DNA of 64,000 nt from Actinomycetota bacterium (GCA_028718945.1 JAQUKT010000002.1:7874-71873); one strand, 5' to 3'; positions 14,490 to 64,000 are shown, numbered from the stretch's first letter. Notes: generated by a model from the letters alone, not told the origin. Translations and numbers: made by a program.

Positions 14490-14506
14490 ACCAGCGTGGA
14501 GGGGAA

Positions 14507-15010: not shown

Positions 15011-15051
15011 CCCCGTGGGGAATTTCCATCACAAGAGGAGGGAATACGCGT

Positions 15052-16477: not shown

Positions 16478-16489
16478 GAGGTTTTTGTC

Positions 16490-18541: not shown

Positions 18542-18561
18542 TGAAGTTTAGAGGGTCGAAA

Positions 18562-35410: not shown

Positions 35411-35425
35411 CTGCTTTGTCCCCCC

Positions 35426-35569
35426 CTACTTCTTTGTCGGCTTCTTCGCAGCTTTCTTTGCCGGCTTCTTCGCAGCTTTCTTCGCAGCTTTCTTCGCAGC
35501 TTTCTTTGCCGGCTTCTTCGCAGCTTTCTTTGCCGGCTTCTTCGCAGCTTTCTTCTTTGCAGTTGCCAT
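35426..35569 (-). CDS. 47-aa Lys/Ala-repeat basic micro-protein (histone H1-like / HupB-tail-like AKKAAKKP repeats)
   Basis: ATG preceded by a strong RBS GGAGGTG (6-nt spacing). Translation MATAKKKAAKKPAKKAAKKPAKKAAKKAAKKAAKKPAKKAAKKPTKK. The TAG stop lies 15 nt before the hdrA-mvhD TTG start. The underlying DNA is a 24-nt-period tandem repeat. Not in the ORF track because it is under 60 aa. Confidence 0.5.
   Translation of the reverse strand: MATAKKKAAKKPAKKAAKKPAKKAAKKAAKKAAKKPAKKAAKKPTKK
35429..35566. repeat. tandem DNA repeat (period about 24 nt, about 5.5 copies) encoding AKKAAKKP units
   Basis: 'ggcttcttcgcagctttctttgcc' iterated. It produces spurious repetitive ORFs in other frames (FFAAFFAG, SCEEAGKE). 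Confidence 0.85.
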
Positions 35570-35579
35570 CTCCCACCTC

Positions 35580-36923
35580 CTATCTTTCCTTACCGACTTT
35601 TACCTCGACCTTAGCCCTGTTTTCTTCAATCTCGTGTGCAGCCCTATCTGCGGCTGCCCCTCCTTGTGTTACTGCATCTGTCACATCCATGGGGCGCGTG
35701 CATGCACCGGCTATGAAGACGCCGGGCACGTTTGTGTCCATTGGCGCAAGAAGATCATCTCGGGCCTTGAAAAACCCGAACTTGTCTGATTCTACACCAA
35801 GAGTTTTCGCAAGTTTTTCAATTCCCTTAGGCGGAACGAATGCCACTGATAGAACTACCATTTCAACTTCAAGCTTCTTAACGCCGCCTGATTCCGTATC
35901 ATCATACCAGATGTAAAGATTCTTTGTTTTTTCATCTTCTGTTATTTCACCTGGTCTTGCTCTTATGTACTTTATCTTATATTCATCCCTTCCTCTTCTT
36001 ATATATTCATCGAAACCTCTGCCGAATGCTCTTATATCTGTGTAAAAAATAAAGTTTTCGGTATCACCGTTGTGCATGTACGCAAGCATCGCGTCCTTTG
36101 TTGCATACATGCAGCATACTGAGCAACAATACGGATGACCAGACTTCAAATCCCTTGCGCCAACGCATTGAATATACGCGATTCTCTTAGGTCTTTCGCC
36201 ATCCGAACGGCGTGTGAGATTCCCCCCGGTTGGTCCACCGGCGTTTATTAGCCTTTCGTATTCCATGGAGTGAATAACGTTTTCAAAACGACCATAACCA
36301 TATTCAGTTACGGGTGTTGGGTCAAAGATGTCGAGCCCGGTTGCCACGATAATAGACCCGACGTTGAGGTTTATGATTTCATCCTTCATTTTGAAATCAA
36401 TTGCCTCTCGGGCACATGCGGTCAGACACTTTGACTTACACTTCCCCTTGGTGAATAAAAGACAGCTTTCAGGGTCAACAAGAGCGGCTCTCGGGACCGC
36501 CTGCGCGAATGGGATGTAAACCGCAGCTCGTTTGCCCAAACCCTCGTCCCACTCGTTTGGGATTCTATTTGAAAGCACACACTCTTCCGCACAGCTTCCG
36601 CATCCGGTACATTTACTCTCATCAATGTATCGTGAATGCTTTCTTACTCTCACACTAAAATTGCCAGACCTCCCCTGGAGTTTCTCCACTTCGGCATAAG
36701 TGATCACTTCTATTTTTGAATGATTGAAGCACGTTATCATTTTTGGGGCTAAAATGCATATCGAGCAATCGTTGGTAGGAAAGACCTTGTCGAGAAGTGC
36801 CATCCTTCCCCCGATTGACGGTTTTTTCTCAACAAGATATACATCATATCCCTTATCGCCGAGGTCAAGGGAAGCTTGAATTCCGCAAACACCACCGCCA
36901 ATCACCAGAACCGAGTCTGACAT
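35580..36923 (-). CDS. HdrA-like FAD-dependent oxidoreductase (N-terminal-half type with inserted ferredoxin domain)
   Basis: 447 aa. 'VLVIGGGVCGIQASLDLG' FAD motif, 'FPTNDCSICIL', inserted 4Fe-4S 'CTGCGSCAEEC', 'YIQCVGARD' and 'CCSVCCMYATK'. Homologous to residues 1-440 of the 1002-aa HdrA at 38685-41693. Confidence 0.8.
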   Translation of the reverse strand: MSDSVLVIGGGVCGIQASLDLGDKGYDVYLVEKKPSIGGRMALLDKVFPTNDCSICILAPKMITCFNHSKIEVITYAEVEKLQGRSGNFSVRVRKHSRYIDESKCTGCGSCAEECVLSNRIPNEWDEGLGKRAAVYIPFAQAVPRAALVDPESCLLFTKGKCKSKCLTACAREAIDFKMKDEIINLNVGSIIVATGLDIFDPTPVTEYGYGRFENVIHSMEYERLINAGGPTGGNLTRRSDGERPKRIAYIQCVGARDLKSGHPYCCSVCCMYATKDAMLAYMHNGDTENFIFYTDIRAFGRGFDEYIRRGRDEYKIKYIRARPGEITEDEKTKNLYIWYDDTESGGVKKLEVEMVVLSVAFVPPKGIEKLAKTLGVESDKFGFFKARDDLLAPMDTNVPGVFIAGACTRPMDVTDAVTQGGAAADRAAHEIEENRAKVEVKVGKER

Positions 36924-36929
36924 ATTATC

Positions 36930-38651
36930 TCACCCCTGTTTCTTCTTGACAGATTCCTGTGCTTTTGGACTCTTTTTTGCGGCTTTTTTCGTAGGAACGG
37001 GCTTTCCCTTCTTCTTTTCTGTTTTAGAGATTGGCTTGGCTTCTGACGTGGATTTTACGCCAGGAGCCTTCATTGCTTTGGCGATGATTGAGGTTATGTC
37101 ATGAACGTCGATGGCTGGCTTTTCCCTTTCGGTAGGGACCTTCCCCGAAAGCGCGCATCTGAAGTGAATCAGGCACTTTGGGCATGAGGTCAGAAGAGCG
37201 TCCGCGCCAGTCGAGCAAGCCTCCTCGAGCCGGTCAATCTGAATGCACTTTGATGTTGCGCCACAAAGTACCCAGGAACTGACACCACAGCATATTGCGT
37301 CGGCACCGGAGTGTTTCATCTCAACGAGTTCAACACCAGGTATCGAGTTTATGACCTTCCTTGGCGCCTCATATATCCCCATGTGACGACCGAGCCGACA
37401 GGGGTCCTGGTAAGTGACTTTCATTTCGAGAGTCTTGTTGAAAGAGATCTTTTTTTCATCAAGTAACTTGCTCGTGAGTTCCGTTATATGCATAACGTCA
37501 ATGTCCCAGTTCTTGATGACCCTCGGGTATTCGCGTGAAAAAGTGAGGTACCCTTCAGGACATGAAAAAACAACCCTTCTGACCCCTGCTTCTTTGATTG
37601 CTTTTGCATTCTTTTTTGCAAGTGTTTCGAAGGATTCGGTGTCGCCTGCCGCAAGAAGGTCATGACCGCAGCAGCATTCGTTTTCGAGCACAACTGGAGT
37701 GATTCCGGCAGCGTTGAGTATTGAGATGGTATTTTTTGCTATGTCAAGGGAACCAGGTCTTATGTACGAGTGTGAGATTTCATAATACGGCAGGCAGCCA
37801 ACAAAATACATTATGTCATTCTTGCTGCTGGCACTTCTTTTGATTCTCATCCCATCGGTAAAGGAAGTGCGGTTCTGGCGAATGCCTTCTGAAGCCATTA
37901 TTCTCATCCAGGAATACATGAGCCCTGATTTCGTTCCAACTTTATTATCCCTTATTTCCTTTGAGGCAACCCTTCGCTGGTAGATGAAGTCCGAGAATCG
38001 GACATCGAAGGGGCACCGTTCCTCGCACGTCGCGCAGGTAAGGCACTCCCATATCCCGTCGGTTTTTTCGAGGTCCGAAACAAGGTTTTCAAGTGAGTAT
38101 TCCACCAGTTTCCTTGGGCTGAACTCAGGGTTTCTCCTCGCAACGGGGCATGACGCGGTGCACTTCCCGCACTCAACGCAGAGCATGGCGTTGGTGCTTT
38201 CTATAGAGTCGTCGAGGGATGGTGCTTTCAAGACCCTTTGCCTGGCTTTCTTGAGAGGATTCGGACCGAGCTTCTTGAGAGCCTTGACGAAATCGGTGAT
38301 TTCTTCTGCAAACTGCTCCCCTTCATTTGCGTTGACCCACTTTATTCTCAATCTATCTGAACCGAGACCAAGAAGGTCGAGGAGCCTCCCGGTTGACTCG
38401 ACTCCCTCCTTTGCCCTCATATTGCCTGTTTTGTAGTGGCAGTCGGCTTCGTGACAACCACCGACCAAAACGCCATCAGCACCGCTTTCGAAGGCTTTAA
38501 GGATGAAGGCAGGTTCAATCCTGCCCGAGCACATGACGCGGATTATTCGTACATTTGCCGGATACTGGATTCTCGATACGCCAGCGTAGTCGGCGCCGGC
38601 ATATGCGCACCAGTTGCATGTGAACGCAATTATCCTTGGCTCAAAAGCCAA
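36930..38651 (-). CDS. MvhD-HdrC-HdrB fusion protein (MvhD domain + 2x[4Fe-4S] + two CCG domains) with Lys-rich C-terminal tail
   Basis: 573 aa. N-terminal MvhD 'IIAFTCNWCAYAGADYAGVSRIQYPANVRIIRVMCSGRIEP'. HdrC-like 'CVECGKCTASCP...CLTCATCEERCP'. HdrB-like CCG motifs 'CCCGHDLL' and 'CCGVSSWVLCG'. Tail 'KKKGKPVPTKKAAKKSPKAQESVKKKQG'. Confidence 0.8.
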   Translation of the reverse strand: MAFEPRIIAFTCNWCAYAGADYAGVSRIQYPANVRIIRVMCSGRIEPAFILKAFESGADGVLVGGCHEADCHYKTGNMRAKEGVESTGRLLDLLGLGSDRLRIKWVNANEGEQFAEEITDFVKALKKLGPNPLKKARQRVLKAPSLDDSIESTNAMLCVECGKCTASCPVARRNPEFSPRKLVEYSLENLVSDLEKTDGIWECLTCATCEERCPFDVRFSDFIYQRRVASKEIRDNKVGTKSGLMYSWMRIMASEGIRQNRTSFTDGMRIKRSASSKNDIMYFVGCLPYYEISHSYIRPGSLDIAKNTISILNAAGITPVVLENECCCGHDLLAAGDTESFETLAKKNAKAIKEAGVRRVVFSCPEGYLTFSREYPRVIKNWDIDVMHITELTSKLLDEKKISFNKTLEMKVTYQDPCRLGRHMGIYEAPRKVINSIPGVELVEMKHSGADAICCGVSSWVLCGATSKCIQIDRLEEACSTGADALLTSCPKCLIHFRCALSGKVPTEREKPAIDVHDITSIIAKAMKAPGVKSTSEAKPISKTEKKKGKPVPTKKAAKKSPKAQESVKKKQG

Positions 38652-38684
38652 CCGTCCTCCTTAGTCTTTGCGCAAACGAAAGCC

Positions 38685-41600
38685 TCATTTCACTGCTGAC
38701 CTTATCATCGCTTCGATTTGCTCATCCGTAAAGTGAGAAATTGTTATGGCGTCGCTCCAGCATGACACCGCGCACATGCCGCAGCCGACGCAAAGAGCCT
38801 CATTGACTTCGGCGACAGGAATTTTTGTACCATCGCTTTTGACACTTATGGCTCCGAATTCGCATGCGTCCTCGCAAGCACCGCAGCCCCGACATCTTTT
38901 CGGGTCAACTTTTGCTATCGCACCTTCACCGATGACATATTCTTTTGACAGGACTGTGATGGCTCTTCCTGCGGCACCGAGACCCTGGGAGATTGCTTCA
39001 CACGCAAGCTTTGGATGATGGCATGTTCCGGCGAGGAATATTCCCGCTGTCGAGAAATCGAGTGGTCTCAGTTTTACGTGGGCTTCAAGGAAGAAGCCGT
39101 CCTCATCGGTAGGTATCTTCATCATCTCGGAAAGGGCGACGTTCTCATCATCGGGGACAACCGGTGTGGAAAGAACAACTAAGTCAGTTTCTATTTCAAT
39201 CTCGTGGGGAACTTGAGGGCTATTGAGATTGACGGTTAAACCATTCTCTTCCTCCTTGATTTGCGGCGGTTCCTTGTCATCGTATCTTATGAACAGTATC
39301 CCTCGCTCTCTTGCTTTCCGATAGAGTTCTTCGTGAAGTGCGTAAACAACAATATCGCGGTAGAGAACAAAAACGTTTGCTCCTGTGTTTCTTTCCTTGA
39401 ATGCAATGGCGTTCATGAGGGCATGGATACAGCAAACGCGGCTGCAGTAAGGTCTCTCCTCGTTCCTCCCCTCGACGCATTGAATCATCACGACCGATTT
39501 TGCTTTTAGTGTGGGGAGTTTTTGCCTGAACTCTTTTTGTGTCATCACTTTTTGGCTCTTACCGAAGAGATAGGAGGATGGGATATGCTCTCTTCCTCCG
39601 GTTGCAACTATTACCGCGCCCGGCTTGATTTCTTTCAAGCCTTCCCCGGATTGAACGAGTGCCCTGAAATTTCCAATGTAGCCGGAGAAGTCAACGACTC
39701 TTGATGAAGTGTGAACGACCACGTTCCTTAGTTTCTTGAGTTCCGAAATCACAGACAGGATGCCCGTGCGGATGTCTTCTGTTTCCTCGATGCCAAGGTT
39801 AGCCGGAATGCTGTTGACGCCTCCACCCAGGTGTTCTTCTTTCTCAACGATGTGAGTTTTGAAACCCGATTTTGCAAGTACGAGCGCTGAGGAGATTCCC
39901 GCCGGACCGCCGCCTATTACAAGAGCTTCGTGGTTTACCTTTACCGGAAGTAGAGGGAGCGGCTCGAGCAACCTTGCTCTTGAGACTGACATCCCCACAA
40001 GGTCCTTTGCTTTCTCCGTTGCTCTTTCGGGCTCGAGGCTGTGAACCCACGAACACTGGTCGCGGATGTTCGCGAATTCAAGGAGGTAACGGTTCAAACC
40101 AGCCTCCCGAATTGTGTCTCTGAAAAGTTTTTCGTGAGTTCGGGGAGTGCATGCCGCCACGACTACCCTCGTGAGTTGGTGCTCATGAATTGCCTGCTTT
40201 ATTCTTTCGCAGGATTCCGATGAGCATGTATATGTGTTTTCCTCGACATATACCACATTCCCAAGAGTGCGAGCATATTCTGCGACGGCACCCGTATCTA
40301 CGAAGTTAGCGATGTTCTTCCCGCAATGGCAGACAAAGACGCCGATTCTTGGTTCCCTCACTTTTGTATCAGCTTCAGGTGGCAGTTCCTTTTCTTGAAT
40401 GAGTGTTCCGCGAGCCTCAGAGAGAATCGAGGAGCAATTGCCAGAAGCGCCCGCTGCCTGGGAAACAGTTTCCGGTATGTCCTTTGGACCAGTCGCTGAG
40501 CCACATGCGAATATCCCGGGCACTGAAGTTTCGGTAGGATTCTCCTGCTTGGTTTCGATGAAGCCGTATTGATTCAACTTTACGCCTGCTTTTTCGAGCG
40601 CGGTTATCGGGGAGGCTTTGAGCCCGACGGAAAGTGAAACGATGTCAAACTCATCTTCTTCCCATCCATCTTCCGTGAGGAACCGTATCCTCAAAGTATC
40701 CGGACCTGCGATTTCAACCGAGGGAATCTTGAATCTGGTAAATCTTATTCCGTACTCGTCTTCTGCTCTTCTTTTGAATCGTTCAAATCCCTTGCCAAAT
40801 GTTCGCATATCGATGTGGAATATGTGGCAGGCTATATCCGGGTCGTGTTCCTTGATAACTGTTGCCTGCTTTATTGCGTAGGTGCAGCAAACCCCGGAGC
40901 AGTAGGGATTGTGGAAAATGTCGCGAGAGCCGGCGCACTGGACGAAGGCAATTCTTTTTGCCGGTTTTCCATCCGATGGTCTTACTATTTTCCCCGCGTA
41001 CGGACCGCTTGCGCACATGATTCTTTCGAGTTGAATCGAGGATACTACATTCGGGTGTTCAGGGTGGTAGGGAGAAAGCTCCTTGATACTTGATGCATGA
41101 GCTCCGGTGGCAGCGACTATCGAACCCACCTCGATTTTCTTGGGTTCCGGTTTCTGGTCGAAGTCTATCGCTTTGGCGGTGCATGCTTCCTGGCACGGAG
41201 CCTTGCACTTCCCCTTCGTGAACTTGAGGCAGGCATTTGTATCAATGAGAGCAATGCGAGGGACGCTCTGGGCGAAGGGGATATAAATTGCACTCCTTTT
41301 TGAAAGACCGGCGTCGAATTCCGATGGGATTCTCTCGGAGAGAACGCATGCTTCTGAACATGCGCCACAGCCGGTGCATAACTCGGTTGAAACGAAGCGA
41401 GGATTTTGAATATATTCAACTGCGAAGTCCCCGGGACCGCCTTTGATTTCTTTGATTTGGGCAAGAGTGATTATCTCTATGTTCGGGTGCTGGCTTGCCT
41501 CCACCAGTTTTGGAGAAAGGATGCACATTGAGCAGTCGTTGGTAGGGAATGTCTTGTCTAACATTGCCATCAGGCCACCTATGGATGGACTGCTTTCAAG

Positions 41601-41693
41601 AATGTAAGCCTCAAAGCCGCTCTCTGCTACATCGAGCGCTGCTTCGATCCCGCCTATTCCTCCACCGACTACGAGGACAGAGCCCTTTTTCAT
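38685..41693 (-). CDS. tandem (double) HdrA-like flavoprotein, 1002 aa
   Basis: Two FAD-binding units ('VLVVGGGIGGIEAALDVA' and 'ALVIGGGPAGISSALVLA'). Inserted ferredoxin 'CTGCGACSEAC', Trx-like 'GVFVCHCGKNIANF', and C-terminal 2x[4Fe-4S] 'CRGCGACEDACEFG...CVGCGMCAVSC'. Confidence 0.85.
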   Translation of the reverse strand: MKKGSVLVVGGGIGGIEAALDVAESGFEAYILESSPSIGGLMAMLDKTFPTNDCSMCILSPKLVEASQHPNIEIITLAQIKEIKGGPGDFAVEYIQNPRFVSTELCTGCGACSEACVLSERIPSEFDAGLSKRSAIYIPFAQSVPRIALIDTNACLKFTKGKCKAPCQEACTAKAIDFDQKPEPKKIEVGSIVAATGAHASSIKELSPYHPEHPNVVSSIQLERIMCASGPYAGKIVRPSDGKPAKRIAFVQCAGSRDIFHNPYCSGVCCTYAIKQATVIKEHDPDIACHIFHIDMRTFGKGFERFKRRAEDEYGIRFTRFKIPSVEIAGPDTLRIRFLTEDGWEEDEFDIVSLSVGLKASPITALEKAGVKLNQYGFIETKQENPTETSVPGIFACGSATGPKDIPETVSQAAGASGNCSSILSEARGTLIQEKELPPEADTKVREPRIGVFVCHCGKNIANFVDTGAVAEYARTLGNVVYVEENTYTCSSESCERIKQAIHEHQLTRVVVAACTPRTHEKLFRDTIREAGLNRYLLEFANIRDQCSWVHSLEPERATEKAKDLVGMSVSRARLLEPLPLLPVKVNHEALVIGGGPAGISSALVLAKSGFKTHIVEKEEHLGGGVNSIPANLGIEETEDIRTGILSVISELKKLRNVVVHTSSRVVDFSGYIGNFRALVQSGEGLKEIKPGAVIVATGGREHIPSSYLFGKSQKVMTQKEFRQKLPTLKAKSVVMIQCVEGRNEERPYCSRVCCIHALMNAIAFKERNTGANVFVLYRDIVVYALHEELYRKARERGILFIRYDDKEPPQIKEEENGLTVNLNSPQVPHEIEIETDLVVLSTPVVPDDENVALSEMMKIPTDEDGFFLEAHVKLRPLDFSTAGIFLAGTCHHPKLACEAISQGLGAAGRAITVLSKEYVIGEGAIAKVDPKRCRGCGACEDACEFGAISVKSDGTKIPVAEVNEALCVGCGMCAVSCWSDAITISHFTDEQIEAMIRSAVK

Positions 41694-41726
41694 GCCGCGC
41701 TGCTCCTTTGAGTCATTGGTTTCTGC

Positions 41727-42662
41727 CTAAAGCACTCCTGCTTCGGATCGCCTGACGAGTCTTTCAAATGAATCGTCAACTCTTTTCTGAATTTCCTTTA
41801 TGTCTTCCTCTTTGAGATGGCGAAAGCGACCCTGTGACCTTAGGTATTCGAGAACTGGTTTTCTTTTTTCCATGAAATAGTTCAATTTGAGTTTTCCGTC
41901 TATGATTTCATAGAGTGGGAAGACGCCTGTTTCGACCGCAAGCCTTCCCATTTCAACGGTAAGTTTGCTGTCGAACCTCCACCCGGTAGGGCAAGGAGTC
42001 AGGATGTGAAGATAGGTTGGTCCTTCTGTTTCGAATGCTATTTTTGCTTTGCGCAGAAGGTCCATGGGGAAACTTGGGCAGCATGTCGCAAGATAGGGAA
42101 TTTCATGAGCTGCAACGATCATGGGAAGATTCTTTTTGTTTGTAACCTGCCCTATTGATTCCTTTCCCGCAGGGCTTGTTGTGGTGCTTGCGCCGTACGG
42201 GGTTGCGGATGAGCGCTGGATGCCGGTATTCATATATGCCTCATTGTCTGTGCAGATGTATGTGAAATCGTGAAATCTCTCGAAAGCGCCAGAGAGAGCC
42301 TGAAGACCGATGTCTGCGGTTCCTCCATCACCGGCAAGGGCGATAATTGTTGTCCGCCCCTGCTTGTAGCGCTTCTTGTTCCTTAGTGTCTTGATTGCCG
42401 ATTCAACTCCGGATGCCACCGCAGCGGCATTTTCGAATGCAACGTGTATCCAGGGAACTCGCCATGCGGTTTGCGGATAGGGGCTTGATATGATTTCAAC
42501 ACAGCCTGTCGCGCTGCATACAATTGTATCCGGACCTGCCGCTTTCATAAATTGCCTGATGGCAAGAGCTTCTCCACAACCTTGGCAGCCACGGTTGCCC
42601 TCGGCGAAATATTCCTGCGGAGGAATAAGCCTGGGGATGAAGTCGAAGTTGCTCTCCGTCAT
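41727..42662 (-). CDS. porB: 2-oxoacid:ferredoxin oxidoreductase beta subunit (TPP-binding; PorB/VorB type)
   Basis: 311 aa with 'GCQGCGE' and the TPP-binding 'GDGGTADIG' motif. Fourth gene of a porG-D-A-B order block. Confidence 0.85.
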   Translation of the reverse strand: MTESNFDFIPRLIPPQEYFAEGNRGCQGCGEALAIRQFMKAAGPDTIVCSATGCVEIISSPYPQTAWRVPWIHVAFENAAAVASGVESAIKTLRNKKRYKQGRTTIIALAGDGGTADIGLQALSGAFERFHDFTYICTDNEAYMNTGIQRSSATPYGASTTTSPAGKESIGQVTNKKNLPMIVAAHEIPYLATCCPSFPMDLLRKAKIAFETEGPTYLHILTPCPTGWRFDSKLTVEMGRLAVETGVFPLYEIIDGKLKLNYFMEKRKPVLEYLRSQGRFRHLKEEDIKEIQKRVDDSFERLVRRSEAGVL

Positions 42663-43837
42663 TCCCTCACTCCTATCATGAAGTACTCCTCCTCAAAACC
42701 CTCTGAAAGCGCTCGTTCGGCAATTTCTACGATTTGTGTGAAATCTTCAATTGTGACATCTCTACCGCCCAGTCCTGCGATGAAGCCTATGGTTAGCGGC
42801 TTTTTCTCGAGGGGATACAATGCACTTCTGAGCTCTGAGCACATGGGCCCGCCCGGCCCCCCGAAGGAAAGGCATCGGTCAACTACGGCTACGGCTTTTG
42901 CATTTTGAACGGCATCCCTTATGTCATTGAAGGGGTATGGTCTCCATAGCCTGGTTGTAAGAAGCCCGACTTTCTTGCCAGACTTTCGCATCTTGCTCAC
43001 AGCGACTTTTGCGGTTCCGGAAATCGAGCCCGCAAGATTGATGATGATTTCAGCATCTTCTGTCATGAATTTCTCGACGGGAGAATATTTTCTGCCAAAC
43101 TTCAAAGCGAAATCTTCCCAAACCTCGAGAATCACGGGATAAGCCCCGAGAATCGCTTCGTTCTGCTGCTTTTTTATCTCTGTATAGATTTCCGGAAAAC
43201 CAACCGGACCAATGGATACGGGGTTTTCGGGGTCGAGTTTCAATTTCGGATTGAACGGGGGGAGAAAGGAATCAATGTCCTCCTGGCTCTCGACGAACAG
43301 CGGTTCAATAACATGAGAGAGTGTAAATCCGTCAATGTTTACGATTGAGGGAGTGAGCACCCTTTCATCTTCAGCCCACTTGAACGACTGTATGGTGAGG
43401 TCGAAGGATTCCTGCCCTGTTTCGGCAAAGACCTGTATCCAACCGCAGTCTCTTTCGGCCATTATGTCACTCTGGTCTCCCCAGATTGAAAGAGGTGCCG
43501 ATAATGCTCTGTTCGCAACAGCCATCACAACGGGGAGTCGGAGACCAGAAGCAATGAAGAGAACCTCGTGCATGAGCGCGAGGCCCTGTGACGCTGTAGC
43601 GGTGAAGGTGCGCGCGCCTGCAGCGGAGGCGCCGCAGCAAGCGCTCATTGCGGAATGTTCGGATTCAACCATGATAAACTCTGAGTCGAGTTCTCCATCG
43701 GCTACCATGCGAGCCAGCTCTTCTACGATATGTGTTTGTGGCGTAATCGGATAAGCCGCAATTACATCCGGCCTGCACAGCTTTGCCGCTTCGCTTATTG
43801 CAAAGGAAACCTCGAGTCCGACTCTTTTGCCCATCAC
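42659..43837 (-). CDS. porA: 2-oxoacid:ferredoxin oxidoreductase alpha subunit
   Basis: 392 aa with PorA-like N-terminal 'AYPITPQT' and 'ESEHSAMSACCGASAAGARTFTATASQGL'. Confidence 0.85.
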   Translation of the reverse strand: MMGKRVGLEVSFAISEAAKLCRPDVIAAYPITPQTHIVEELARMVADGELDSEFIMVESEHSAMSACCGASAAGARTFTATASQGLALMHEVLFIASGLRLPVVMAVANRALSAPLSIWGDQSDIMAERDCGWIQVFAETGQESFDLTIQSFKWAEDERVLTPSIVNIDGFTLSHVIEPLFVESQEDIDSFLPPFNPKLKLDPENPVSIGPVGFPEIYTEIKKQQNEAILGAYPVILEVWEDFALKFGRKYSPVEKFMTEDAEIIINLAGSISGTAKVAVSKMRKSGKKVGLLTTRLWRPYPFNDIRDAVQNAKAVAVVDRCLSFGGPGGPMCSELRSALYPLEKKPLTIGFIAGLGGRDVTIEDFTQIVEIAERALSEGFEEEYFMIGVRE

Positions 43838-57326: not shown

Positions 57327-58421
57327 TTAAGCCGGCAAGAATCTGTCTTTCAATTTCTTCATGACGCTTGGCATGGTCGTATATTCCATCTCGTCAAGCG
57401 GCAAGCGGTGTGGCTCAAAAGGTCCATGTCTTCTTAGGTAATCCGCAGCATCGAGAGCAAGCTGCCTTGCATTGTCGAAGCTTTTGTCTCCGAGCATATC
57501 CCGAGGACCGATGAGTTTCCCATCCTTTAACTGAAACCCACGCCCGACAACTCGAGGCGGACCATCAAAGCGAGTCGGAGTGTCATCTTCAAGAGCAACT
57601 GGCATAAGAGGACCGTGATGAGAGCCCCTCATCCAGCCGGCGACCGCGTGAGGAAAGGCGAACGGCTCCACGACCTCCCCCACTGCCGGAAGGCCGCTTT
57701 GGCAACGAACAGCCATTACCGGATCGTCTTTTCCTATGTATCTGCCGGCCATGAGAAAAAGCCTCTGAGTGGAGGTTACTGCTACGGGTTCATCGCTACT
57801 CTTCCTGAAAACGTGTTTTATGACAAAGCGAGATGGAGAACCGATGAACACGAGCATGTCATACATCTCTTCCGGGCAGTTGAAAATTATCTTCTTCTCA
57901 TCGATCAGGTCATGGACCTCGAATCTGAATCCATCGTGCATGCTGGGGTCAATCACGAGACCAATTGTGTTGAACGGGTCTGCAAACATTCTGAAAAGTG
58001 GCATGTTCCATGCTCCGGGCTCGGTTTTGTCGGCAAGAAATATAATAACCGGCTCACTTGGCCTTTCGTTGAAGGTCATCTCGGCGAAGCCTGGACCCAT
58101 TCCCTTTAAATTCCCTGAGAACGCATCAACCAACAGGTCCTGCCCTGCGCCGTACTGCCCGAACTCTTTTGCGACTTCGGTCATTGCAGTGAAGGTGTCC
58201 CAGGCAAATTTGTGGATTTCCTCGTTTTCCACTCCTTTCTGGTGCGTCATAATCAGGGCAATGTCATCTCCAACCTCGCCTTGGCTGAAATCAATTATCA
58301 GGCCATTCTTTTTTGCCTTTTCGAGTTGCTCCACAGCCTTACGTCTGAGCTCAGGGTGAACGTCAGAATGACCGACGTAGCCCCCAACGTCAGCTTTTAT
58401 GATGCTTAGCGTTATTTCCAC
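57327..58421 (-). CDS. fbp: bifunctional fructose-1,6-bisphosphate aldolase/phosphatase (class V FBPase)
   Basis: 364 aa. 'ITLSIIKADVGGYVGHSDVHP' N-terminus and overall collinearity with archaeal/Aquificae FBP aldolase/phosphatases. Confidence 0.85.
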   Translation of the reverse strand: MEITLSIIKADVGGYVGHSDVHPELRRKAVEQLEKAKKNGLIIDFSQGEVGDDIALIMTHQKGVENEEIHKFAWDTFTAMTEVAKEFGQYGAGQDLLVDAFSGNLKGMGPGFAEMTFNERPSEPVIIFLADKTEPGAWNMPLFRMFADPFNTIGLVIDPSMHDGFRFEVHDLIDEKKIIFNCPEEMYDMLVFIGSPSRFVIKHVFRKSSDEPVAVTSTQRLFLMAGRYIGKDDPVMAVRCQSGLPAVGEVVEPFAFPHAVAGWMRGSHHGPLMPVALEDDTPTRFDGPPRVVGRGFQLKDGKLIGPRDMLGDKSFDNARQLALDAADYLRRHGPFEPHRLPLDEMEYTTMPSVMKKLKDRFLPA

Positions 58422-59554: not shown

Positions 59555-60637
59555 TTATTCCGCGGATATGGTGTATTTACCGTATGACGGCTCGTTTTCC
59601 CCCCAGGTAATGTTCGAGTTCCTGTCCGTCAAGGCTTCGACTGCGCCTGCAATTTTTGCCGCATAGAGTATCTGGTTGTATGCACTTTTTATCTCGACCG
59701 AAACGGAACTTTCGGTTGTTTGAAAGGAAACCGGATAGCCAAACCCGCGAGCCCCCATTTCGGAAAGGTATTCGTTCCAGAAAGAGTGGTGGTTGGCGGT
59801 CTCGGCTTTCTTTGATTCGAGTTTCTGCCGCGAGTACTGTTTCTGGGAGTCATAAAGCATGTCCAAGACTTCCTCGCCGAGTTCATGGGCAAGCTCTCTC
59901 AAAATTGCGTTCATGGACTGAACTGCCACCATTCCCTCTCTCATTCCGGTTTTTTTATTTCTTATTTCTCCGGCTTCTAAGTTCCAGATGAAAGATTGGG
60001 AAATTCTTTCAGGCACCCCGCACCTGCATTTTTCAAAGGTAAGCTTCCCTTCCCCGGATGAAGGTTCCTCCAGATAAAGGCGTTCGGCTGAAACTCGGGA
60101 TTCCTCTGCATGGCTCATCCGCACGTAGAGAGTTCCGCCCTCGACCTTATATTCCGCACTCGAGCCCGGCATCTCCTCGACACATTCGTAAATGCCGAGA
60201 CAGTTGCCGACTACCATCGGTATCAAGCAGGGATTTATGAATGAGAGAGTTGCGGATTCTCCTGCTTTGTAAGAAACAAGGCCTATACTTCCTGCTCCCA
60301 TTGCTGCTACGTAATTTCTCACAGACCAGATGAGGAGTTTCGCGAGAAACTGAAGTTTCAAAAACGAGGGGATGCGCTTGACATCTATGTTCATATACAA
60401 TCCCCGGGCTATCTCATATATTGTTTTCCCGACGTTTTTCTGGGCTTCGATGAGGATATGCTCGACTGGCGAGCCAACCTTGCTCGTAAGTTCGTTGAAA
60501 ATGAAATCCCATTCATTGACCTCGAGGAACATGAGCGGCATTCTTAGCCTTTGGCTTGCTAAGATTGTCCCGTCGCCTTGCCATTCGAAGACGGAAGAAT
60601 ATCTCCTCGGGAAACCGCAAATTTTGCACCTGAGCAT
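59555..60637 (-). CDS. hypothetical protein (no recognised domain), 15 nt upstream of plsC
   Basis: 360-aa ORF with N-terminal 'CKICGF' and later 'CRCG' cysteine pairs. Same strand as plsC with a tiny intergenic gap. Confidence 0.5.
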   Translation of the reverse strand: MLRCKICGFPRRYSSVFEWQGDGTILASQRLRMPLMFLEVNEWDFIFNELTSKVGSPVEHILIEAQKNVGKTIYEIARGLYMNIDVKRIPSFLKLQFLAKLLIWSVRNYVAAMGAGSIGLVSYKAGESATLSFINPCLIPMVVGNCLGIYECVEEMPGSSAEYKVEGGTLYVRMSHAEESRVSAERLYLEEPSSGEGKLTFEKCRCGVPERISQSFIWNLEAGEIRNKKTGMREGMVAVQSMNAILRELAHELGEEVLDMLYDSQKQYSRQKLESKKAETANHHSFWNEYLSEMGARGFGYPVSFQTTESSVSVEIKSAYNQILYAAKIAGAVEALTDRNSNITWGENEPSYGKYTISAE

Positions 60638-60759
60638 TTTAGCCCCCTTGCGCTGATTGCCGACTGACTGAGAACCATGCCGAATCCCAGTACAAAAACT
60701 GAGTTCTTACATTTTGAGGTACATAATACCAGATCACTCGAGTGCAGTCTTATGCCTTG

Positions 60760-63285
60760 TTAGAAGCCGACCACATCGTGCCCACCGGTCCAACCGTTGT
60801 AGTTGAAGTACATTGGGCGCTCAGCCACCACGGGCTTGTCCGCCTGCACCCTGGCCGAGACATCATGGCCGCGGCCGATCACGCCGGCGACATTCAGGGT
60901 CGCGCGCGCGCGCGCGCTGATGTCTAACTGCTGGGCTCTCTGCTCACCCGTCCCGAGCATAAAGGTGATCGTTACGTGTGCCTTCTCGCTGCCCGGGTTC
61001 CCTATGCAGATGTACTCGTCGAAGCCCTCGCGGGTGCACCCCTCGGCGAAGAACCAGCTCGTCTTGTCCGTTGATGAACCGAGCACATCGTGCCCACCGG
61101 TCCAACCGTTGTAGTTGAAGTACATTGGGCGCTCGGCAACCACGGGCTGGTCGCTCTCGATGGTCATCGAGGAGTCGACCCCTTGCCCGAGGGGCACGCT
61201 CACGTCCAGAGTCCAGCGGGAGTTGGAACCGACTGTGTAACTCTCGCTCTGCTGGGTCCCGTCCCCCTTGAAGAAGTGGACCGTTATATGTGCGTCGGCG
61301 GGGTTCGCGTTCTGAACTGCAAGCCACTCCTCGAAGCCGGGCTGGGTGCTCCCCTCAGCGAAGTACCACAAGTTCTTGGGGAAGTCGGCCCCCATCACGA
61401 CATGGCCGCCGTCCCACTTGCTGTGGTAGTTGAAGTACATTGGGCGCTCGGCGACGATGGAGTCATCGCAGTGAACGTGCACGGAGACATCCTGGCCGGG
61501 ACCCACGTCGCCGTTCACGAAGACGGACACGCGCGAGTGTGCCGGCACGTTGTACTCCTTCTGCTGCATGTAGGCGCCAGCGGATATGTAGAAGACCTTG
61601 ACATTGACAGCCTTGCTGTTCGGGTTCTGTATGCAGATCCACTCCTCGAAGCCTTCTCTGGTTGTGCCCTCCGCGAAGTACCAGTCGCACCCGGGCGAGA
61701 CGGCCCCGGTCACGCAGTGCCCACCCGTCCAGGAGAAACCAGGCTGACCCATCTTGTAGTTGAAGTACATGGGGCGTTCGGCGTAGAACTCACCCTCGGC
61801 GAGTAGCATCACCGATACGTCCTGCCCCGGTCCTATATCTTCATTCACGTTTATGGAGGTGCGCGAGGTGGCATCGATGGTGTAAGTTTTTTCGATAGGC
61901 GCCCCTCCGGCCAGCATATATGTGGCGGTGACCTCCAGCGCTTTTTTGCCCGGGTTCTGCAGGCATAGCCATTCATTGAAGCCCTCGCGGGTGCACCCCT
62001 CGGCGAAGTAGTAGGAGTAGTAAGTGGGTGTAATCACGGTGAAGGTCTTGGGATTGGAGATGCCGCCGGGCGTCACGACCTTCAACTCCACCTGGCCCGA
62101 AGCCCCCGCGGGGACCTTTGCGCTTATGCGCGTATCCGACCAGGCTGTGTACTCGGAGGCATCAATGGAGCCGAACCCCACGTACGAGCTGTCCCGGGTG
62201 TCCCCGAAGTCTGTACCTCTTATGGTTACCTCCGCGCCGACGCGCCCGGAGGTCGGCGCGATGCTCGATATGCGGGGCGGGTTGCGGTAGCCGCCTCCAT
62301 CGGTGGTGTGCAGTACAATGCCGCCCTCCCCGACGGCCCAGGCGTTCTTCGCATCCGCCGCCGCCACGCCGGTGAGTTCCGCGGTTACGCCGGACGACTG
62401 CGGGAACCAGGTCTTCCCACCATCGACCGTTTTCCAGATCGTCCCCCGCCCACCGACCGCCCAGGCCGTGTTCTCGTCGACCGCGCAGACTGAGACTGAA
62501 CCTTGCGATTGAGGATCCAGCTGCTTGTTCCAAGTCGAACCACCGTTCGTCGATTTGTATATGCCGCTTCCCACGGCCCAGATTACCTGTGAGTTGACGG
62601 CCCATATATCGGACATCACCGTTCCCATGTCATTGACCGTCCAGTGCGCTCCGCCGTCGGTTGTCTTGATGAGCGAACCGTCGGTCCCGAGCGCCCATGC
62701 GGTCTGGGCGCTGACGGCGGTCACCGATCGCAAGAAGCTTGAGTATCCGGTCTTCTTCCGGCTCTGCCAGTGCGCTCCGCCGTCGGTGGTCCTCGCGATG
62801 GCGCCACCTTCTCCCACGACCCACACGGTCTGGGTATCGACGGCCCATATGGCCCAGTAGGTCTGGGAGAGTCCCGTATCTATCTCTGACCAGTTCGTGC
62901 CACCATCGAGGGTGTGGAGTATCCGGTCTAACCCGATCGCCCATGCGTCGTTCGCGCCGGCTATTGAGATGTCTAGGGCCTGCCTCGGGGGGACATATCT
63001 ATTCCAAGTGCCGCCCCCGTTATGAGACCACAGCAATATGCCCGACGGATTGGCTCCGCCTATGTAGACGTTGTCCTTGCCCCAGTTGGCGACCCCGGTC
63101 AGGCCGATCGAGGTCCCAGCGTCCACCAACTGCCATCCGAGAGGAGTGGCGGCGGTGGTCTCTGCCTTGATCGATGGAGCTGCAACCGACATCGCCAGCA
63201 GCACGAGCAGCGGTACTACCACTGCGACCGAATGCCTCAGCCTTCTGCTGTTCGCCATCTCTCCAACCTCCTTGTTATCAGACAA
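60760..63285 (-). CDS. secreted beta-propeller (BNR/Ycf48-like) - IPT/TIG - 5x repeat-domain protein; high-GC island
   Basis: 841 aa. Signal peptide 'VAVVVPLLVLLAMSVAAPSIKA'. About seven 'TxDGGxxW' blades. IPT-like 'PRISSIAPTSGRVGAEVTIRGTDFG'. Five repeats of about 104 aa ('YFAEGxTREGFxEWxCxQNP...AERPMYFNY'). Local GC is about 62-65% against about 50% in the flanks. Confidence 0.7.
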   Translation of the reverse strand: MSDNKEVGEMANSRRLRHSVAVVVPLLVLLAMSVAAPSIKAETTAATPLGWQLVDAGTSIGLTGVANWGKDNVYIGGANPSGILLWSHNGGGTWNRYVPPRQALDISIAGANDAWAIGLDRILHTLDGGTNWSEIDTGLSQTYWAIWAVDTQTVWVVGEGGAIARTTDGGAHWQSRKKTGYSSFLRSVTAVSAQTAWALGTDGSLIKTTDGGAHWTVNDMGTVMSDIWAVNSQVIWAVGSGIYKSTNGGSTWNKQLDPQSQGSVSVCAVDENTAWAVGGRGTIWKTVDGGKTWFPQSSGVTAELTGVAAADAKNAWAVGEGGIVLHTTDGGGYRNPPRISSIAPTSGRVGAEVTIRGTDFGDTRDSSYVGFGSIDASEYTAWSDTRISAKVPAGASGQVELKVVTPGGISNPKTFTVITPTYYSYYFAEGCTREGFNEWLCLQNPGKKALEVTATYMLAGGAPIEKTYTIDATSRTSINVNEDIGPGQDVSVMLLAEGEFYAERPMYFNYKMGQPGFSWTGGHCVTGAVSPGCDWYFAEGTTREGFEEWICIQNPNSKAVNVKVFYISAGAYMQQKEYNVPAHSRVSVFVNGDVGPGQDVSVHVHCDDSIVAERPMYFNYHSKWDGGHVVMGADFPKNLWYFAEGSTQPGFEEWLAVQNANPADAHITVHFFKGDGTQQSESYTVGSNSRWTLDVSVPLGQGVDSSMTIESDQPVVAERPMYFNYNGWTGGHDVLGSSTDKTSWFFAEGCTREGFDEYICIGNPGSEKAHVTITFMLGTGEQRAQQLDISARARATLNVAGVIGRGHDVSARVQADKPVVAERPMYFNYNGWTGGHDVVGF
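60772..60822. repeat. exact 51-bp intragenic DNA repeat, copy 1 (second copy 61084-61134)
   Basis: 'cacatcgtgcccaccggtccaaccgttgtagttgaagtacattgggcgctc' occurs identically 312 bp (104 codons) apart. It marks a recent duplication of the last protein repeat unit. Confidence 0.85.
61084..61134. repeat. exact 51-bp intragenic DNA repeat, copy 2
   Basis: Identical to 60772-60822. Confidence 0.85.
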
Positions 63286-63621
63286 CCCCTACTCCACGCG
63301 GAACCTCTATTCTTTAATTCAGCGCCTGGAACGTACCGCTTATGTAAAGATACTGCATATGTATGCGCCATTAACCTTTTCGGGAAGTGCTGCCATTTTG
63401 CTCATGGTTTTCATCGACATGGTAGCGGATGAACTTTACCCTGTCAATCGCTCGAACTGTGAGTTTGCCCCGGGCTGCCTTTTCTATTCCCGCTCCTTCA
63501 CGGTTGTTGTCTGGAATCTCAAAGCCCCGTCGTATGAATGAAACAGTTGACCGAGGACTTACCGAGGAGTAGTATTCTCCCCCGGGATACATCAACTTTA
63601 GGGAGTTTCAAGGAGGTTTCG

Positions 63622-64000
63622 ATGAGAAGAGCAGTTTCTTTTTTATCGGTCCTATTTTTACTCGTTCTTCTTCCATTCTTTTCGCTCCCCGCTTTGGCTG
63701 AGCACTCCGGTGGTTCGATTGGCTCATGGAGCCTCGAAGTGTCGCGTGGATTTGGAGCGGGAGCGGCAAACACGGCAGCGGGTCCTCTTGTCACTTATAA
63801 TGGAAAACTATACGCCGGGGTTGCAAACGAAGCAGGCGCACGGGTGATGGTGAGGGATGGGAACTGGAAGGCTATAAATACCGCTGGCTTTGGAGATTCA
63901 AAAAACGCGGATATCCCAAGGATGGTTGTGTACAAGGGGAAGCTCTACGCCGGGACCATGAACCAAAATGGTTGTCAAGTATGGAGTTATGATGGGAGCA
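63622..64000 (+). CDS. secreted repeat protein, 5' partial (runs off window end)
   Basis: RBS AGGAGG at 63611-63616. Signal peptide 'VLFLLVLLPFFSLPALA'. Repeated 'GKLYAG(V/T)xNxxG' motif (beta-propeller-like). Divergent from the high-GC gene. Confidence 0.5.
   Translation, partial: MRRAVSFLSVLFLLVLLPFFSLPALAEHSGGSIGSWSLEVSRGFGAGAANTAAGPLVTYNGKLYAGVANEAGARVMVRDGNWKAINTAGFGDSKNADIPRMVVYKGKLYAGTMNQNGCQVWSYDGS

Follow-up and report, generated by a model that had tools for sequence, protein, structure and literature searches.

Domains of the ASRAH superfamily, among them ASRT of Anabaena and TM1070 of Thermotoga (Pfam PF07100), share two hallmarks, a Trp that starts strand 1 and a near-invariant Asn that ends strand 2 (De Souza, Iyer, and Aravind 2009; PMC2739507). 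Binding of sugars in the strand-2 pocket is a prediction of that study, which is also the source of the dyad/tetrad rule for these domains. It further describes Chloroflexi ASRAH tetrads (family 2), mainly chloroflexal and always fused to a MurNAc-L-Ala amidase, and an actinobacterial cell-surface lipoprotein with two ASRAH domains that is linked to WhiB and a glycosyltransferase (PMC2739507); DUF5719 (PF18986) appears to be this lipoprotein. The module family is very large, was described bioinformatically in 2009, and is labeled only DUF5719/ASRT, and the function of its secreted forms is predicted only. A full-text literature search for "DUF5719" found no paper. Here, we compare with these systems a secreted protein encoded in a 64-kb window (the whole stretch of DNA analyzed) from an uncultivated, hot-spring-type member of the class Geothermincolia with a low GC content (~49%). 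Its domains follow the order signal peptide, Ycf48-like seven-bladed propeller, IPT/TIG domain, and four ASRAH units of ~104 amino acids (aa).

Gene model and domain architecture

The coding sequence occupies 60760..63258 on the minus strand (832 aa plus stop), as judged from the open reading frame (ORF), an ATG preceded by AAGGAGG, and the N termini of orthologues. An NCBI protein from a metagenome-assembled genome (MAG), "DUF5719 family protein" of an Actinomycetota bacterium, matches it at 100% identity, but its 841-aa model starts at a TTG at 63285, nine codons too early. The initial annotation likewise extended the gene to 63285; the real start is the ATG at 63258, since the Shine-Dalgarno sequence AAGGAGG (63267..63273, minus strand) lies 8 nt upstream of it and orthologue N termini align at MANSRRL.

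The signal peptide (63166..63258, minus strand; aa 1-31, MANSRRLRHSVAVVVPLLVLLAMSVAAPSIKA) was read from the sequence. AlphaFold2 (AF2) models a helix over residues 5 to 24 followed by a low-confidence linker, and the N termini of orthologues are similar. A lipobox cysteine is absent, the first Cys of the protein lying not before residue 258. A Tat signal was also considered and set aside because, judged by eye, the SRRLRH stretch resembles the Tat consensus only weakly.

The Ycf48-like seven-bladed Asp-box beta-propeller follows at 62293..63141 (minus strand; aa ~40-322). It matches Pfam PSII_BNR at 68.6 bits (cutoff, 27), is modeled with a pLDDT above 90, and aligns in Foldseek with the Ycf48 structures 5oj3, 5ojr, and 2xbg (TMt 0.70 to 0.77, 21 to 23% identity). 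The seven blades and the PSII_BNR match are thus shared with Ycf48/HCF136, but besides this low identity, the match to NCBIfam NF010237 reaches 76.5 bits against an equivalog cutoff of 326. Unlike Ycf48/HCF136, the protein is multidomain, secreted, and actinobacterial, and the window showed no photosystem genes. An IPT/TIG immunoglobulin-like domain comes next (62035..62277, minus strand; aa 328-408; Pfam TIG, 50.1 bits; cutoff, 20.9). The full-length AF2 model has a pLDDT of 92.8. The combination of signal peptide, BNR/Ycf48-like propeller (Pfam PSII_BNR), and IPT/TIG domain (Pfam TIG) proposed in the initial annotation is therefore present in full, as are the repeat motifs that it listed, YFAEG, EW(L/I)C(L/I)QNP, and ERPMYFNY.

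The C-terminal ASRAH units

The remainder of the protein consists of unit 1 (61693..62022; aa 413-522), unit 2 (61378..61692; aa 523-627), unit 3 (61066..61377; aa 628-731), and unit 4 (60763..61065; aa 732-832), all on the minus strand. Unit 4 ends the protein in GGHDVVGF, as in most relatives. Five repeats had been proposed, but the spacings of 312, 315, and 330 nt and the four ERPMYF motifs give four. For the module alone, AF2 gave a pLDDT of 97 and a pTM of 0.93 and predicted a single rigid body composed of all four units.

Foldseek relates the units to TM1070 (1nc7; TMt 0.81, rmsd 1.7 to 1.8, probability 1.00) and to ASRT (2ii7/2ii8/2iia; TMt 0.72 to 0.85). Single-sequence searches of the PDB gave marginal matches only, and a unit profile was needed to reach TM1070; this profile (A3) matches 1nc7 at an E value of 1e-4 (W, E, C, and N coincide in the alignment) and 2ii7 at 0.015. 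At the level of sequence families, DUF5719 is the best match to the whole protein (63.0 bits; gathering cutoff, 26.2), with Pfam ASRT at 21.5, under its gathering cutoff of 25; among single units, 17 of 28 match DUF5719 and 8 of 28 match ASRT. The proposal in the initial annotation that a profile search of the repeat might find a named DUF was thus borne out by DUF5719/ASRT, with the closest homologues in ~62% GC genomes. It had stated that a match to a well-characterized domain of known function would count against its reading; this objection does not apply, as DUF5719 and ASRT are named families whose secreted forms have only a predicted function.

Each unit shares with the superfamily an eight-stranded beta-sandwich (TMt ~0.8, rmsd 1.2 to 1.8 Å, 22 to 28% identity), and the alignment extends to the strand-1 Trp, the Asn that closes strand 2, and the E-x-h-C-h-h-N pocket strand. 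The Trp is found in units 2 to 4 and is a Tyr in unit 1, while the Asn occurs in every unit of the protein and does not vary across 28 aligned units; both align with the W and N of TM1070. The pocket strand itself is conserved as E-W-h-C-h-Q-N. Its Cys, the only conserved one per unit, is kept in units 1, 2, and 4 and replaced by Ala in unit 3. Since it aligns with Cys29 in the ligand pocket of TM1070, it is not obviously a disulfide residue; of the earlier suggestion of conserved cysteines and possible disulfides, the former stands for three units, whereas the latter is weak. A row of four agrees with the tetramer formed by the solo proteins. In contrast to ASRT and TM1070, however, these units are secreted and covalently linked, and their pocket His is replaced by N, E, or D. 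They also have an extra conserved tail, AERPMYFNY..W.GGHDV.G, compared with the ASRT core. We assign the C-terminal region to an ASRAH tetrad of the ASRT/TM1070 fold with high confidence.

Among these systems, the DUF5719/ASRAH lipoprotein is the best sequence-family match (63 bits) and is similarly secreted and found in Actinomycetota. It differs from the protein described here, which has four units rather than two, lacks a lipobox Cys, and is fused to a propeller and a TIG domain. Furthermore, the genes nearby encode no WhiB, glycosyltransferase, or zincin; instead, they encode p360 (described below), a PlsC-like protein, an FBP aldolase/phosphatase, and a secreted repeat protein.

The number of units is four in all orthologues, and exactly four motifs were counted in 95 of 113 motif-carrying relatives; in 99 of these 113, the module is C terminal. 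Partner domains in relatives include papain-like, S8, M23, CHAP, PGA_cap, RCC1, PD40, and ice-binding-like domains. At an E value of at most 1e-3, the module family comprises 6165 cluster representatives (50% identity), of which 2631 are retained at 1e-30. The module appears to be the usual C-terminal tail of secreted proteins in this uncultivated actinobacterial class. Phage and plasmid collections, searched by tblastn with the module, gave no match. The gene neighborhoods of orthologues offered no consistent functional clue.

Possible role of the tetrad

The suggestion of an extracellular binding module in the initial annotation is reasonable, as the units belong to a superfamily of predicted sugar binders (PMC2739507). 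In the mechanism we propose, the product would be exported by a Sec-type signal peptide, the propeller may serve as a ligand-binding head, and the tetrad may bind a glycan, for which a wall polymer of the producing cell is the likeliest candidate; this binding would hold the protein on the surface. We infer the glycan or wall role because thousands of relatives join proteases, peptidoglycan hydrolases, and other propellers to the same, usually C-terminal, tetrad. We give this putative role, glycan binding or wall retention, about an even chance. The amidase-linked tetrads of Chloroflexi are comparable in that a secreted tetrad is attached to another extracellular domain, and wall-glycan binding is predicted for both. 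They differ in lineage, which here is Actinomycetota, and in their partners, which here are a Ycf48-like propeller and a TIG domain with no amidase, and other domains in relatives.

SLH and CWB2 are cell wall-binding modules of Gram-positive surface proteins, built from a few tandem domains of fixed number that assemble into a single pseudo-symmetric body. The tetrad resembles them by functional analogy, being placed at one end of many unrelated secreted heads, but its fold is unrelated and its binding of wall polymers is putative. Should the tetrad prove to anchor proteins to the wall, the way in which these organisms display proteases, lysins, and propeller proteins would be explained, and the tetrad would be a tool for surface display or for capturing their cells.

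Even with the transfer described below taken as real, the tetrad might instead be a substrate-targeting carbohydrate-binding module or an oligomerization scaffold directed at environmental polymers rather than a device for wall retention. Some relatives do contain a GH5-type cellulase match or ice-binding-like or PD40 domains, stand-alone secreted tetrads exist (L088), and ASRAH pockets have been likened to CBM4 (PMC2739507). However, fusions to CHAP, M23, and, in Chloroflexi, MurNAc-L-Ala amidase point to peptidoglycan, and a C-terminal position with a fixed copy number across diverse heads would be typical of anchoring modules. We consider this alternative somewhat unlikely.

Base composition and codon usage

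An abrupt rise in GC content over this one gene was reported in the initial annotation, and we found the same: GC content across 60800-63200 ranges from 0.59 to 0.65, while no other 1-kb bin of the window exceeds 0.53. GC content is 0.616 for the gene and 0.43 to 0.53 for the window background, and the drop to background occurs only a few bases away from the stop codon at one end and from the ribosome-binding site (RBS) at the other. The excess is mainly synonymous, with GC1/GC2/GC3 of 0.561/0.502/0.791 against 0.552/0.409/0.518 for 46 pooled window genes. The checks of GC, codon usage, and tetranucleotides that the initial annotation had proposed all single out the same gene: its GC3 of 0.79 compares with 0.52±0.04 for the 46 window genes (z=6.8), its region is the strongest tetranucleotide outlier of the window, and its RSCU distance to the window genes is 1.55, against a spread of 0.96±0.21 among those genes themselves. 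Per-domain GC3 is high throughout (0.755 to 0.857). In contrast, the RSCU distance to the gene sets of L001 and L002 is only 0.73 and 0.78, respectively; in codon usage, the gene resembles the ~62% GC genomes in which its closest homologues lie, not the host. Spurious ORFs in all frames had been reported only here. Other-frame ORFs of at least 80 aa are indeed many and overlapping over 60803-63541, but sporadic ones occur elsewhere in the window too.

Evidence for horizontal acquisition

Most Geothermincolia have a GC content of ~62%, and named homologues of the gene come almost entirely from Actinomycetota MAGs. The host FBP aldolase/phosphatase shares 90% identity with its counterpart in "Ca. 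Geohydrothermomicrobium daggyaiense" (GC, 0.49) and 85 to 88% with those in Geothermincolia MAGs whose GC contents are 0.63 to 0.67. The homologues P0002 (74% aa identity), P0003, P0006, and P0016 lie on contigs of 60 to 63% GC among neighbor genes with GC3 of 0.71 to 0.90, and a neighbor-joining tree places the protein as sister to P0002 inside a clade of homologues from high-GC genomes. Against P0002, dS is unsaturated at 0.93, with a dN/dS of 0.17, while dS for the flanking FBPase, PlsC, and p360 genes is saturated against every sampled relative. The best homologue has only 76% DNA identity, and the donor would be a ~62% GC genome of an unsampled taxon that carries this gene lineage.

Downstream lies the native gene p360 (59555..60637, minus strand; 360 aa, no family match), which served as a syntenic anchor for comparison with the empty site and is followed by the PlsC-like and FBP aldolase/phosphatase genes. 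A single-protein search of species-representative genomes found no close relatives of p360, and the FBP aldolase/phosphatase was used in its place as the anchor for finding relatives. In L006 and L008, p360, PlsC, and FBPase are kept, and the upstream gene is DnaE2, not the high-GC gene, which is likewise absent from the syntenic site in L005 and L010. The gene thus appears to occupy a position where relatives have a LexA-DinB-DnaE2 cassette; the LexA, DinB, DnaE2, and IscS genes of L005 are absent from the window.

DNA homology to L001 (76%) is confined to the ORF and RBS, and that to the closest orthologue begins within the Shine-Dalgarno sequence, at 63271. An 8-nt direct repeat, TAACAAGG, marks the 5' edge of the foreign segment (63270..63277, minus strand), with a downstream copy at the 3' edge (60755..60762, minus strand) that consists of the stop TAA plus CAAGG. 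Its significance is uncertain; the 8-mer occurs only four times in the window on both strands, and the flanking pair may be a chance occurrence. In relatives, the corresponding empty site is not marked by TAACAAGG. We found no integrase, transposase, or clear target-site duplication beside the gene, no tRNA genes in the 64-kb window, and no terminator-like site 3' of the gene, including the stretch up to p360.

Altogether, horizontal acquisition of the single gene, as the initial annotation had proposed and as seen here on a MAG contig, is strongly favored, if slightly less firmly than the fold assignment, because composition, codon usage, phylogenetic nesting, the empty syntenic site, and an unsaturated dS agree. 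In the sequence of events we propose, a single ORF with its own RBS (63271-60761) would have entered a ~49% GC Geothermincolia chromosome ~57 kb from dnaA and, without a terminator of its own, would read toward the native p360-PlsC genes. The explanation as a whole, covering transfer, product, and the later conversion described below, is one that we regard as probable. The transfer itself, a clean single-ORF exchange between relatives of strongly different base composition, is fairly ordinary and no surprise to a specialist; the compositional contrast renders the event conspicuous and allows it to be dated roughly.

A transfer also seems to have occurred in the opposite sense. The L086 orthologue, from another sample, is a low-GC copy in a higher-GC contig beside two transposase genes, a mirror case which shows that such mosaics recur. 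We might speculate that Geothermincolia and uncultivated Actinomycetota related to them use the tetrad as a general module for envelope retention; such a wall anchor would have no relationship to SLH, CWB2, or LysM and would copy the ASRT/TM1070 homotetramer in covalent form. Genes for its surface proteins would be swapped as ORF-precise cassettes between lineages ~15 GC points apart, and the exchange would run both ways, with a high-GC copy in the window and a low-GC copy in L086. This generalization is rather doubtful.

Since the source is a MAG contig and high- and low-GC Geothermincolia share similar habitats, a high-GC piece from a co-occurring member could have been stitched into a low-GC contig during assembly or binning. 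Low-GC host DNA lies on both sides, however (60 kb on one, the gene at 63622 on the other), so that two chimeric junctions would be required, one coinciding precisely with the RBS and the other with the stop codon of a single ORF. These junctions have just 8 nt in common, too short for an assembler join, and the mirror case in L086 comes from another sample. We consider such an artifact improbable. It is more improbable still that a native gene has kept a high GC3 by selection, whether to adapt the codons of a strongly expressed surface protein or to satisfy constraints on mRNA structure. Selection on a native gene would accommodate the intact reading frame, the purifying selection (dN/dS of 0.17), the strong Shine-Dalgarno sequence, and a family that is native to the class. 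However, none of the 46 other genes reaches a GC3 of 0.61, including dnaA, dnaN, dnaX, and the FBP aldolase/phosphatase gene, and native members of the family in low-GC genomes are themselves low in GC (0.47 for a partial gene of L005 and ~0.51 for the gene from 63622). Codon usage that fits specific foreign genomes, a syntenic site without the gene in relatives, and a dS to the high-GC homologue far below that of any flanking gene against any relative also argue against native origin and for acquisition.

Gene conversion between units 3 and 4

The exact 51-nt identity reported between the last two units has the coordinates given in the initial annotation (60772-60822 and 61084-61134) and lies in a 74-nt stretch with 95% identity. 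Over the initial 228 nt of units 3 and 4, identity is only 52%, compared with 91% in the final 75 nt. The orthologues in L001 and L002 retain a different unit-3 tail, six codons longer (...FCYKEGEPGYGWTGGHD), and the sequence type shared by the two units here is the one conserved in unit-4 tails of orthologues. Codon usage by itself would produce a match over 17 codons with a probability of 2.7e-5. We conclude that intragenic gene conversion of ~60 to 75 nt very probably ran from the unit-4 tail (donor tract, 60767..60840, minus strand) to the unit-3 tail (acceptor tract, 61079..61152, minus strand; 74 nt). After acquisition or divergence, the unit-4 tail would have overwritten the ancestral unit-3 tail and left the number of units unchanged. 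The initial annotation had read the identity as recent duplication with ongoing expansion. Duplication of a whole unit is difficult to reconcile with 52% identity over the first 228 nt, and expansion with four units fixed in all orthologues and 95 of 113 relatives in one predicted rigid body.

The probability that a native gene became GC rich through GC-biased conversion among repeats or paralogous modules is negligible: intragenic conversion did happen and a probable paralogue-bearing gene adjoins, but the nonrepeated propeller and TIG domain are equally GC rich (GC3, 0.76 to 0.81), the converted tract includes codons that do not end in G or C (CCA, GGT, and GAT), and the neighbor gene is at native GC. 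A version of this process restricted to the repeats was likewise disfavored by the uniform GC3 along the gene. The neighbor in question is divergently oriented, starts at 63622 on the plus strand, and is cut by the window end (63622..64000; GC ~0.51). It had been described as encoding a secreted repeat protein, and a signal peptide and KLYAG repeats are present. Its homologue in L010, 48% identical, carries ASRAH units at its C terminus.

Composition and limits of the gene

The GC-rich island reported in the initial annotation is real and coincides with a single minus-strand open reading frame (ORF). In 400-nt windows, GC content is 0.59 to 0.65 over positions ~60800 to 63200 and 0.44 to 0.51 in both flanks, and 1-kb bins of the 64-kb window outside the island stay at or below 0.53. 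The ORF listing puts the start of this target gene at a TTG codon at 63285. Since a canonical Shine-Dalgarno sequence, AAGGAGG, stands 8 nt ahead of an ATG at 63258 and orthologue N termini start at the residue aligned with this ATG, we take the gene to be 60760 to 63258 (832 amino acids [aa]); the publicly annotated protein (841 aa, from the TTG) seems to carry nine extra codons at its start (63259 to 63285).

GC3 of the target gene is 0.79, compared to 0.517 ± 0.041 (maximum, 0.602) for the 46 other ORFs in the window (z = 6.8). GC1/GC2/GC3 values of 0.561/0.502/0.791 for the target gene and 0.552/0.409/0.518 for the pooled window genes indicate that roughly three quarters of the GC excess is synonymous. 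The RSCU distance to the window genes is 1.55, against 0.96 ± 0.21 (maximum, 1.42) for the window's own genes, and positions 60501 to 63000 are the strongest tetranucleotide outlier in the whole window. ORFs in other frames overlap the gene densely, as expected for GC-rich DNA.

Origin of the gene

NCBI holds an identical protein ("MAG: DUF5719 family protein [Actinomycetota bacterium]"), and the next best match among 5.8 billion clusters, P0002, has only 74% identity. We recovered contigs for homologues sharing the target's architecture, namely, P0002 (contig L001), P0003 (63% identity; L085), P0006 (57%; L002/L003), and P0016 (44%; L004). All of these contigs have 60 to 63% GC, and neighboring genes have GC3 values of 0.71 to 0.90, so the gene has native composition in these genomes. 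Codon-usage distances from the target gene to the L001 and L002 gene sets are 0.73 and 0.78, while those of the window genes are 2.04 ± 0.24. A neighbor-joining tree places the window protein as sister to P0002, within the clade of high-GC homologues, and the named members of this gene lineage are almost all Actinomycetota MAGs. DNA homology to L001 (76%) is confined to the ORF and its ribosome-binding site (RBS), from 63271 to 60761; the flanking sequences show no relationship. Downstream of the target gene, p360, the gene for a native 360-aa protein, begins after 122 nt on the same strand, followed by genes for a PlsC-like protein and an FBP aldolase/phosphatase (FBPase). This synteny is kept in L006 and L008, where the end of a LexA-DinB-DnaE2 cassette lies upstream of p360, and the target gene is absent at the corresponding site in L005, L006, L008, and L010. 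Between the target gene and P0002, dS is 0.93 (dN/dS, 0.17). Comparisons of FBPase, PlsC, and p360 with each of the relatives sampled, the low-GC one among them, all gave saturated dS. The distance from the host to any known relative is therefore much greater than that from the target gene to a homologue residing in a high-GC genome.

Taken together, composition, codon usage, tree position, the empty syntenic site, and divergence support well the horizontal transfer proposed initially and indicate that the acquisition was recent. The donor would be an unsampled genome of ~62% GC belonging to the gene's own lineage. Given a GC3 of 0.79 in the target gene, 0.82 to 0.86 in its clade, and 0.52 at host equilibrium, we roughly infer that the time in the host makes up just a small fraction of the branch between the target gene and P0002.

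An assembly chimera is an unlikely source of the island: both of its junctions would have to fall precisely on the RBS and the stop codon of a single ORF, with 8 bases only in common. The proposals that a native gene was kept GC rich by selection, or was made so by GC-biased conversion restricted to the repeats, are contradicted by a GC3 that is uniformly high in nonrepeated parts too (propeller, 0.76; TIG, 0.81; units, 0.755 to 0.857), by the low GC of native paralogues (0.47 for a partial gene at L005 1 to 614, a module-family member in a low-GC genome, and ~0.51 for the window gene at 63622), and by an incongruent pattern of divergence.

The 8 bases shared by the junctions, TAACAAGG, form a direct repeat at both edges of the stretch homologous to the closest orthologue. 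One copy (63277 to 63270) lies just 5′ of and overlaps the Shine-Dalgarno sequence, and the other (60762 to 60755) comprises the stop codon plus five bases. The 8-mer has only 4 copies in the window, counting both strands; by our estimate, its occurrence at both edges has a chance probability of ~0.01 to 0.05, given the latitude in defining an edge. The repeat could represent a target-site duplication, microhomology, or chance. Hairpin terminators follow the stop codon in orthologues; none follows the target gene in the window, and no tRNA or mobility gene was found near it.

A possible mirror case occurs in L086, a contig of 11.7 kb that comes from a different sample (JGI 3300018080, Ga0180433_10009690). 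Its positions 2711 to 5257 encode an orthologue, P0008 (54% identity), with a GC of 0.478 and GC3 of 0.45 among neighbors with GC3 of 0.62 to 0.81. The codon-usage distance of P0008 is 0.91 to the window background and 1.51 to its own neighbors, a contrast that is suggestive only, as composition is uneven along the contig. Two transposase genes, IS110-type and DDE (398 to 2332), lie directly upstream. These observations hint at repeated movement of the gene between lineages that differ in GC.

Protein fold and the C-terminal tetrad

Pfam searches of the target protein returned PSII_BNR/Ycf48, TIG, and DUF5719, with a subthreshold match to ASRT. In the AlphaFold2 full-length model (pLDDT, 92.8; 60 homologues), the N-terminal domain can be superimposed on the Ycf48 structures 5oj3, 5ojr, and 2xbg (TMt, 0.70 to 0.77; 21 to 23% identity), but it falls far under the NCBIfam equivalog threshold for Ycf48. 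We therefore describe it as a Ycf48-like Asp-box propeller. The remainder contains four repeat units, not five as first counted. The 421-aa C-terminal part modeled alone gave a pLDDT of 97 and a pTM of 0.93, which predicts a single rigid body of four domains.

A single unit resembles TM1070 (1nc7; TMt, 0.81; rmsd, 1.7 to 1.8 Å; 22% identity) as well as the sensory rhodopsin transducer of Anabaena (2ii7 to 2iia; TMt, 0.72 to 0.85; 27 to 28% identity); higher-ranked multidomain structural matches were meaningless (rmsd, >20 Å). A profile of 28 single units also matches 1nc7 (E = 1e-4), with WYFAEG aligned on WFFPDGY and E-W/Y-h-C-h-Q-N on H-E-S-L-C-I-M-N. The repeat belongs to the ASRAH superfamily, described bioinformatically by De Souza, Iyer, and Aravind in 2009 (PMC2739507), whose secreted forms have been characterized by prediction only and whose hallmarks, a strand-1 Trp and a strand-2 Asn, are present in the target units. 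Nonsolo members "always occur either as dyads ... or as tetrads," dyads being actinomycete lipoproteins and tetrads amidase-linked forms in Chloroflexi, and sugar binding is predicted (PMC2739507). In TM1070, H25 and C29 were identified as ligand-contacting residues of a pocket to which the dimer interface contributes (PMC2739507). The cysteines previously proposed to form disulfides align with this pocket Cys, which weakens that proposal; each is the sole conserved Cys of its unit, with Ala instead in unit 3 of the target and its orthologues.

The 51-nt identity noted earlier between units 3 and 4 was confirmed (P = 2.7e-5 for codon usage alone to produce it when the residues are identical), but reading it as a recent duplication or expansion is wrong: the two units share only 52% identity in their first 228 nt, compared to 91% in the last 75 nt. 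In orthologues on L001 and L002, the unit 3 tail is ERPMYFCYKEG(E/D)(P/S)GYGWTGGHD, six codons longer, and the unit 4 tail is ERPMYFNYNGWTGGHDVIGF. Since unit 3 in the window bears the unit 4 type of tail, we conclude that gene conversion copied a short stretch of unit 4 onto unit 3 in the lineage of the window. The stretch GAGCGCCCAATGTACTTCAACTAC, common to units 2 to 4, hints at further homogenization among them. Repeat expansion is disfavored by the unchanged unit number and the predicted rigid tetrad.

An ERPMYF-like motif occurs in 113 of the 120 best relatives, exactly four times in 95 of these 113, and the last motif lies ≤40 residues from the C terminus in 99 (typical ending, ...GGHDVVGF). 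The tetrad is joined to a wide variety of other domains: papain-like protease (in "Ca. Anoxymicrobium japonicum"), subtilase, M23, CHAP with five TIG domains, PGA_cap, RCC1 propeller with TIG, PD40 with TIG, and ice-binding-like domains. A scan of 1.84 billion cluster representatives returned 6,165 proteins at E ≤ 1e-3 and 2,631 at E ≤ 1e-30, the longest having 2,888 aa; a full-text literature search for DUF5719 found no paper. The fixed number, usually terminal position, and many secreted "heads," including peptidoglycan hydrolases, suggest that the tetrad is a putative wall-retention or glycan-targeting module. The tetrad may hold the protein to the wall of its own cell or direct it to a polymer outside. 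Two contigs classed as viral also carry tetrads. L088:570-6338 (IMGVR_UViG_3300044692_000080) encodes a stand-alone secreted tetrad (488 aa) directly after a 1,173-aa tail-fiber-like repeat protein, and in L087 (193 kb) the tetrad is N-terminal, with a poly-proline linker after it.

Host chromosome and neighborhood

The window is chromosomal and near the replication origin, with dnaN (793 to 1887), dnaA (2267 to 3706), and parA/parB, as well as HdrA-like genes and a chemotaxis cluster with cheA. Both dnaN and dnaA are on the minus strand, strongly negative GC skew gives way to positive values near 2 kb, and the origin probably lies in or adjoins positions 1 to 4300. The window FBPase gene (57327 to 58421) has 90% identity to that of "Candidatus Geohydrothermomicrobium daggyaiense" (class Geothermincolia, family Anoxymicrobiaceae) and 85 to 88% to those of other Geothermincolia MAGs. 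Since GC of the "Ca. G. daggyaiense" locus is 49%, as in the window, and that of the next relatives is 62 to 67%, the host is a low-GC member of a mostly high-GC class.

p360 (59555 to 60637) encodes a conserved protein that begins MLRCKICGFPRR and matches neither a Pfam nor an NCBIfam family; several Geothermincolia keep it in synteny with PlsC and FBPase (50 to 52% identity). In relatives, the LexA-DinB-DnaE2 (SOS mutagenesis-type) cassette sits between a gene for a "KLYAG"-repeat surface protein and p360/FBPase. Comparison of window positions 60638 to 63621 with L005, L006, L008, and L010 shows the imported gene in the cassette's position, and the cassette was not found anywhere in the 64-kb window. 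The divergent neighbor, of native GC and seen over 63622 to 64000, encodes a secreted "KLYAG"-repeat, propeller-like protein. Its homologue in L010 (1 to 1506, minus strand) has ASRAH units at its end, and two tetrad-type surface-protein genes, one native and one imported, may thus sit head to head.

Elsewhere in the window, a run of HdrA-like, MvhD/VhuD-like, and HdrC/GlpC-like Fe-S flavoprotein genes (33122 to 43837), followed by 2-oxoacid:ferredoxin-oxidoreductase-like ORFs, resembles a module of the electron-bifurcation type, here in an actinobacterium. Actinomycetota are usually held to be nonmotile; the chemotaxis cluster spans 12279 to 19696, with cheA at 16490 to 18541 and adjoining che-like ORFs.
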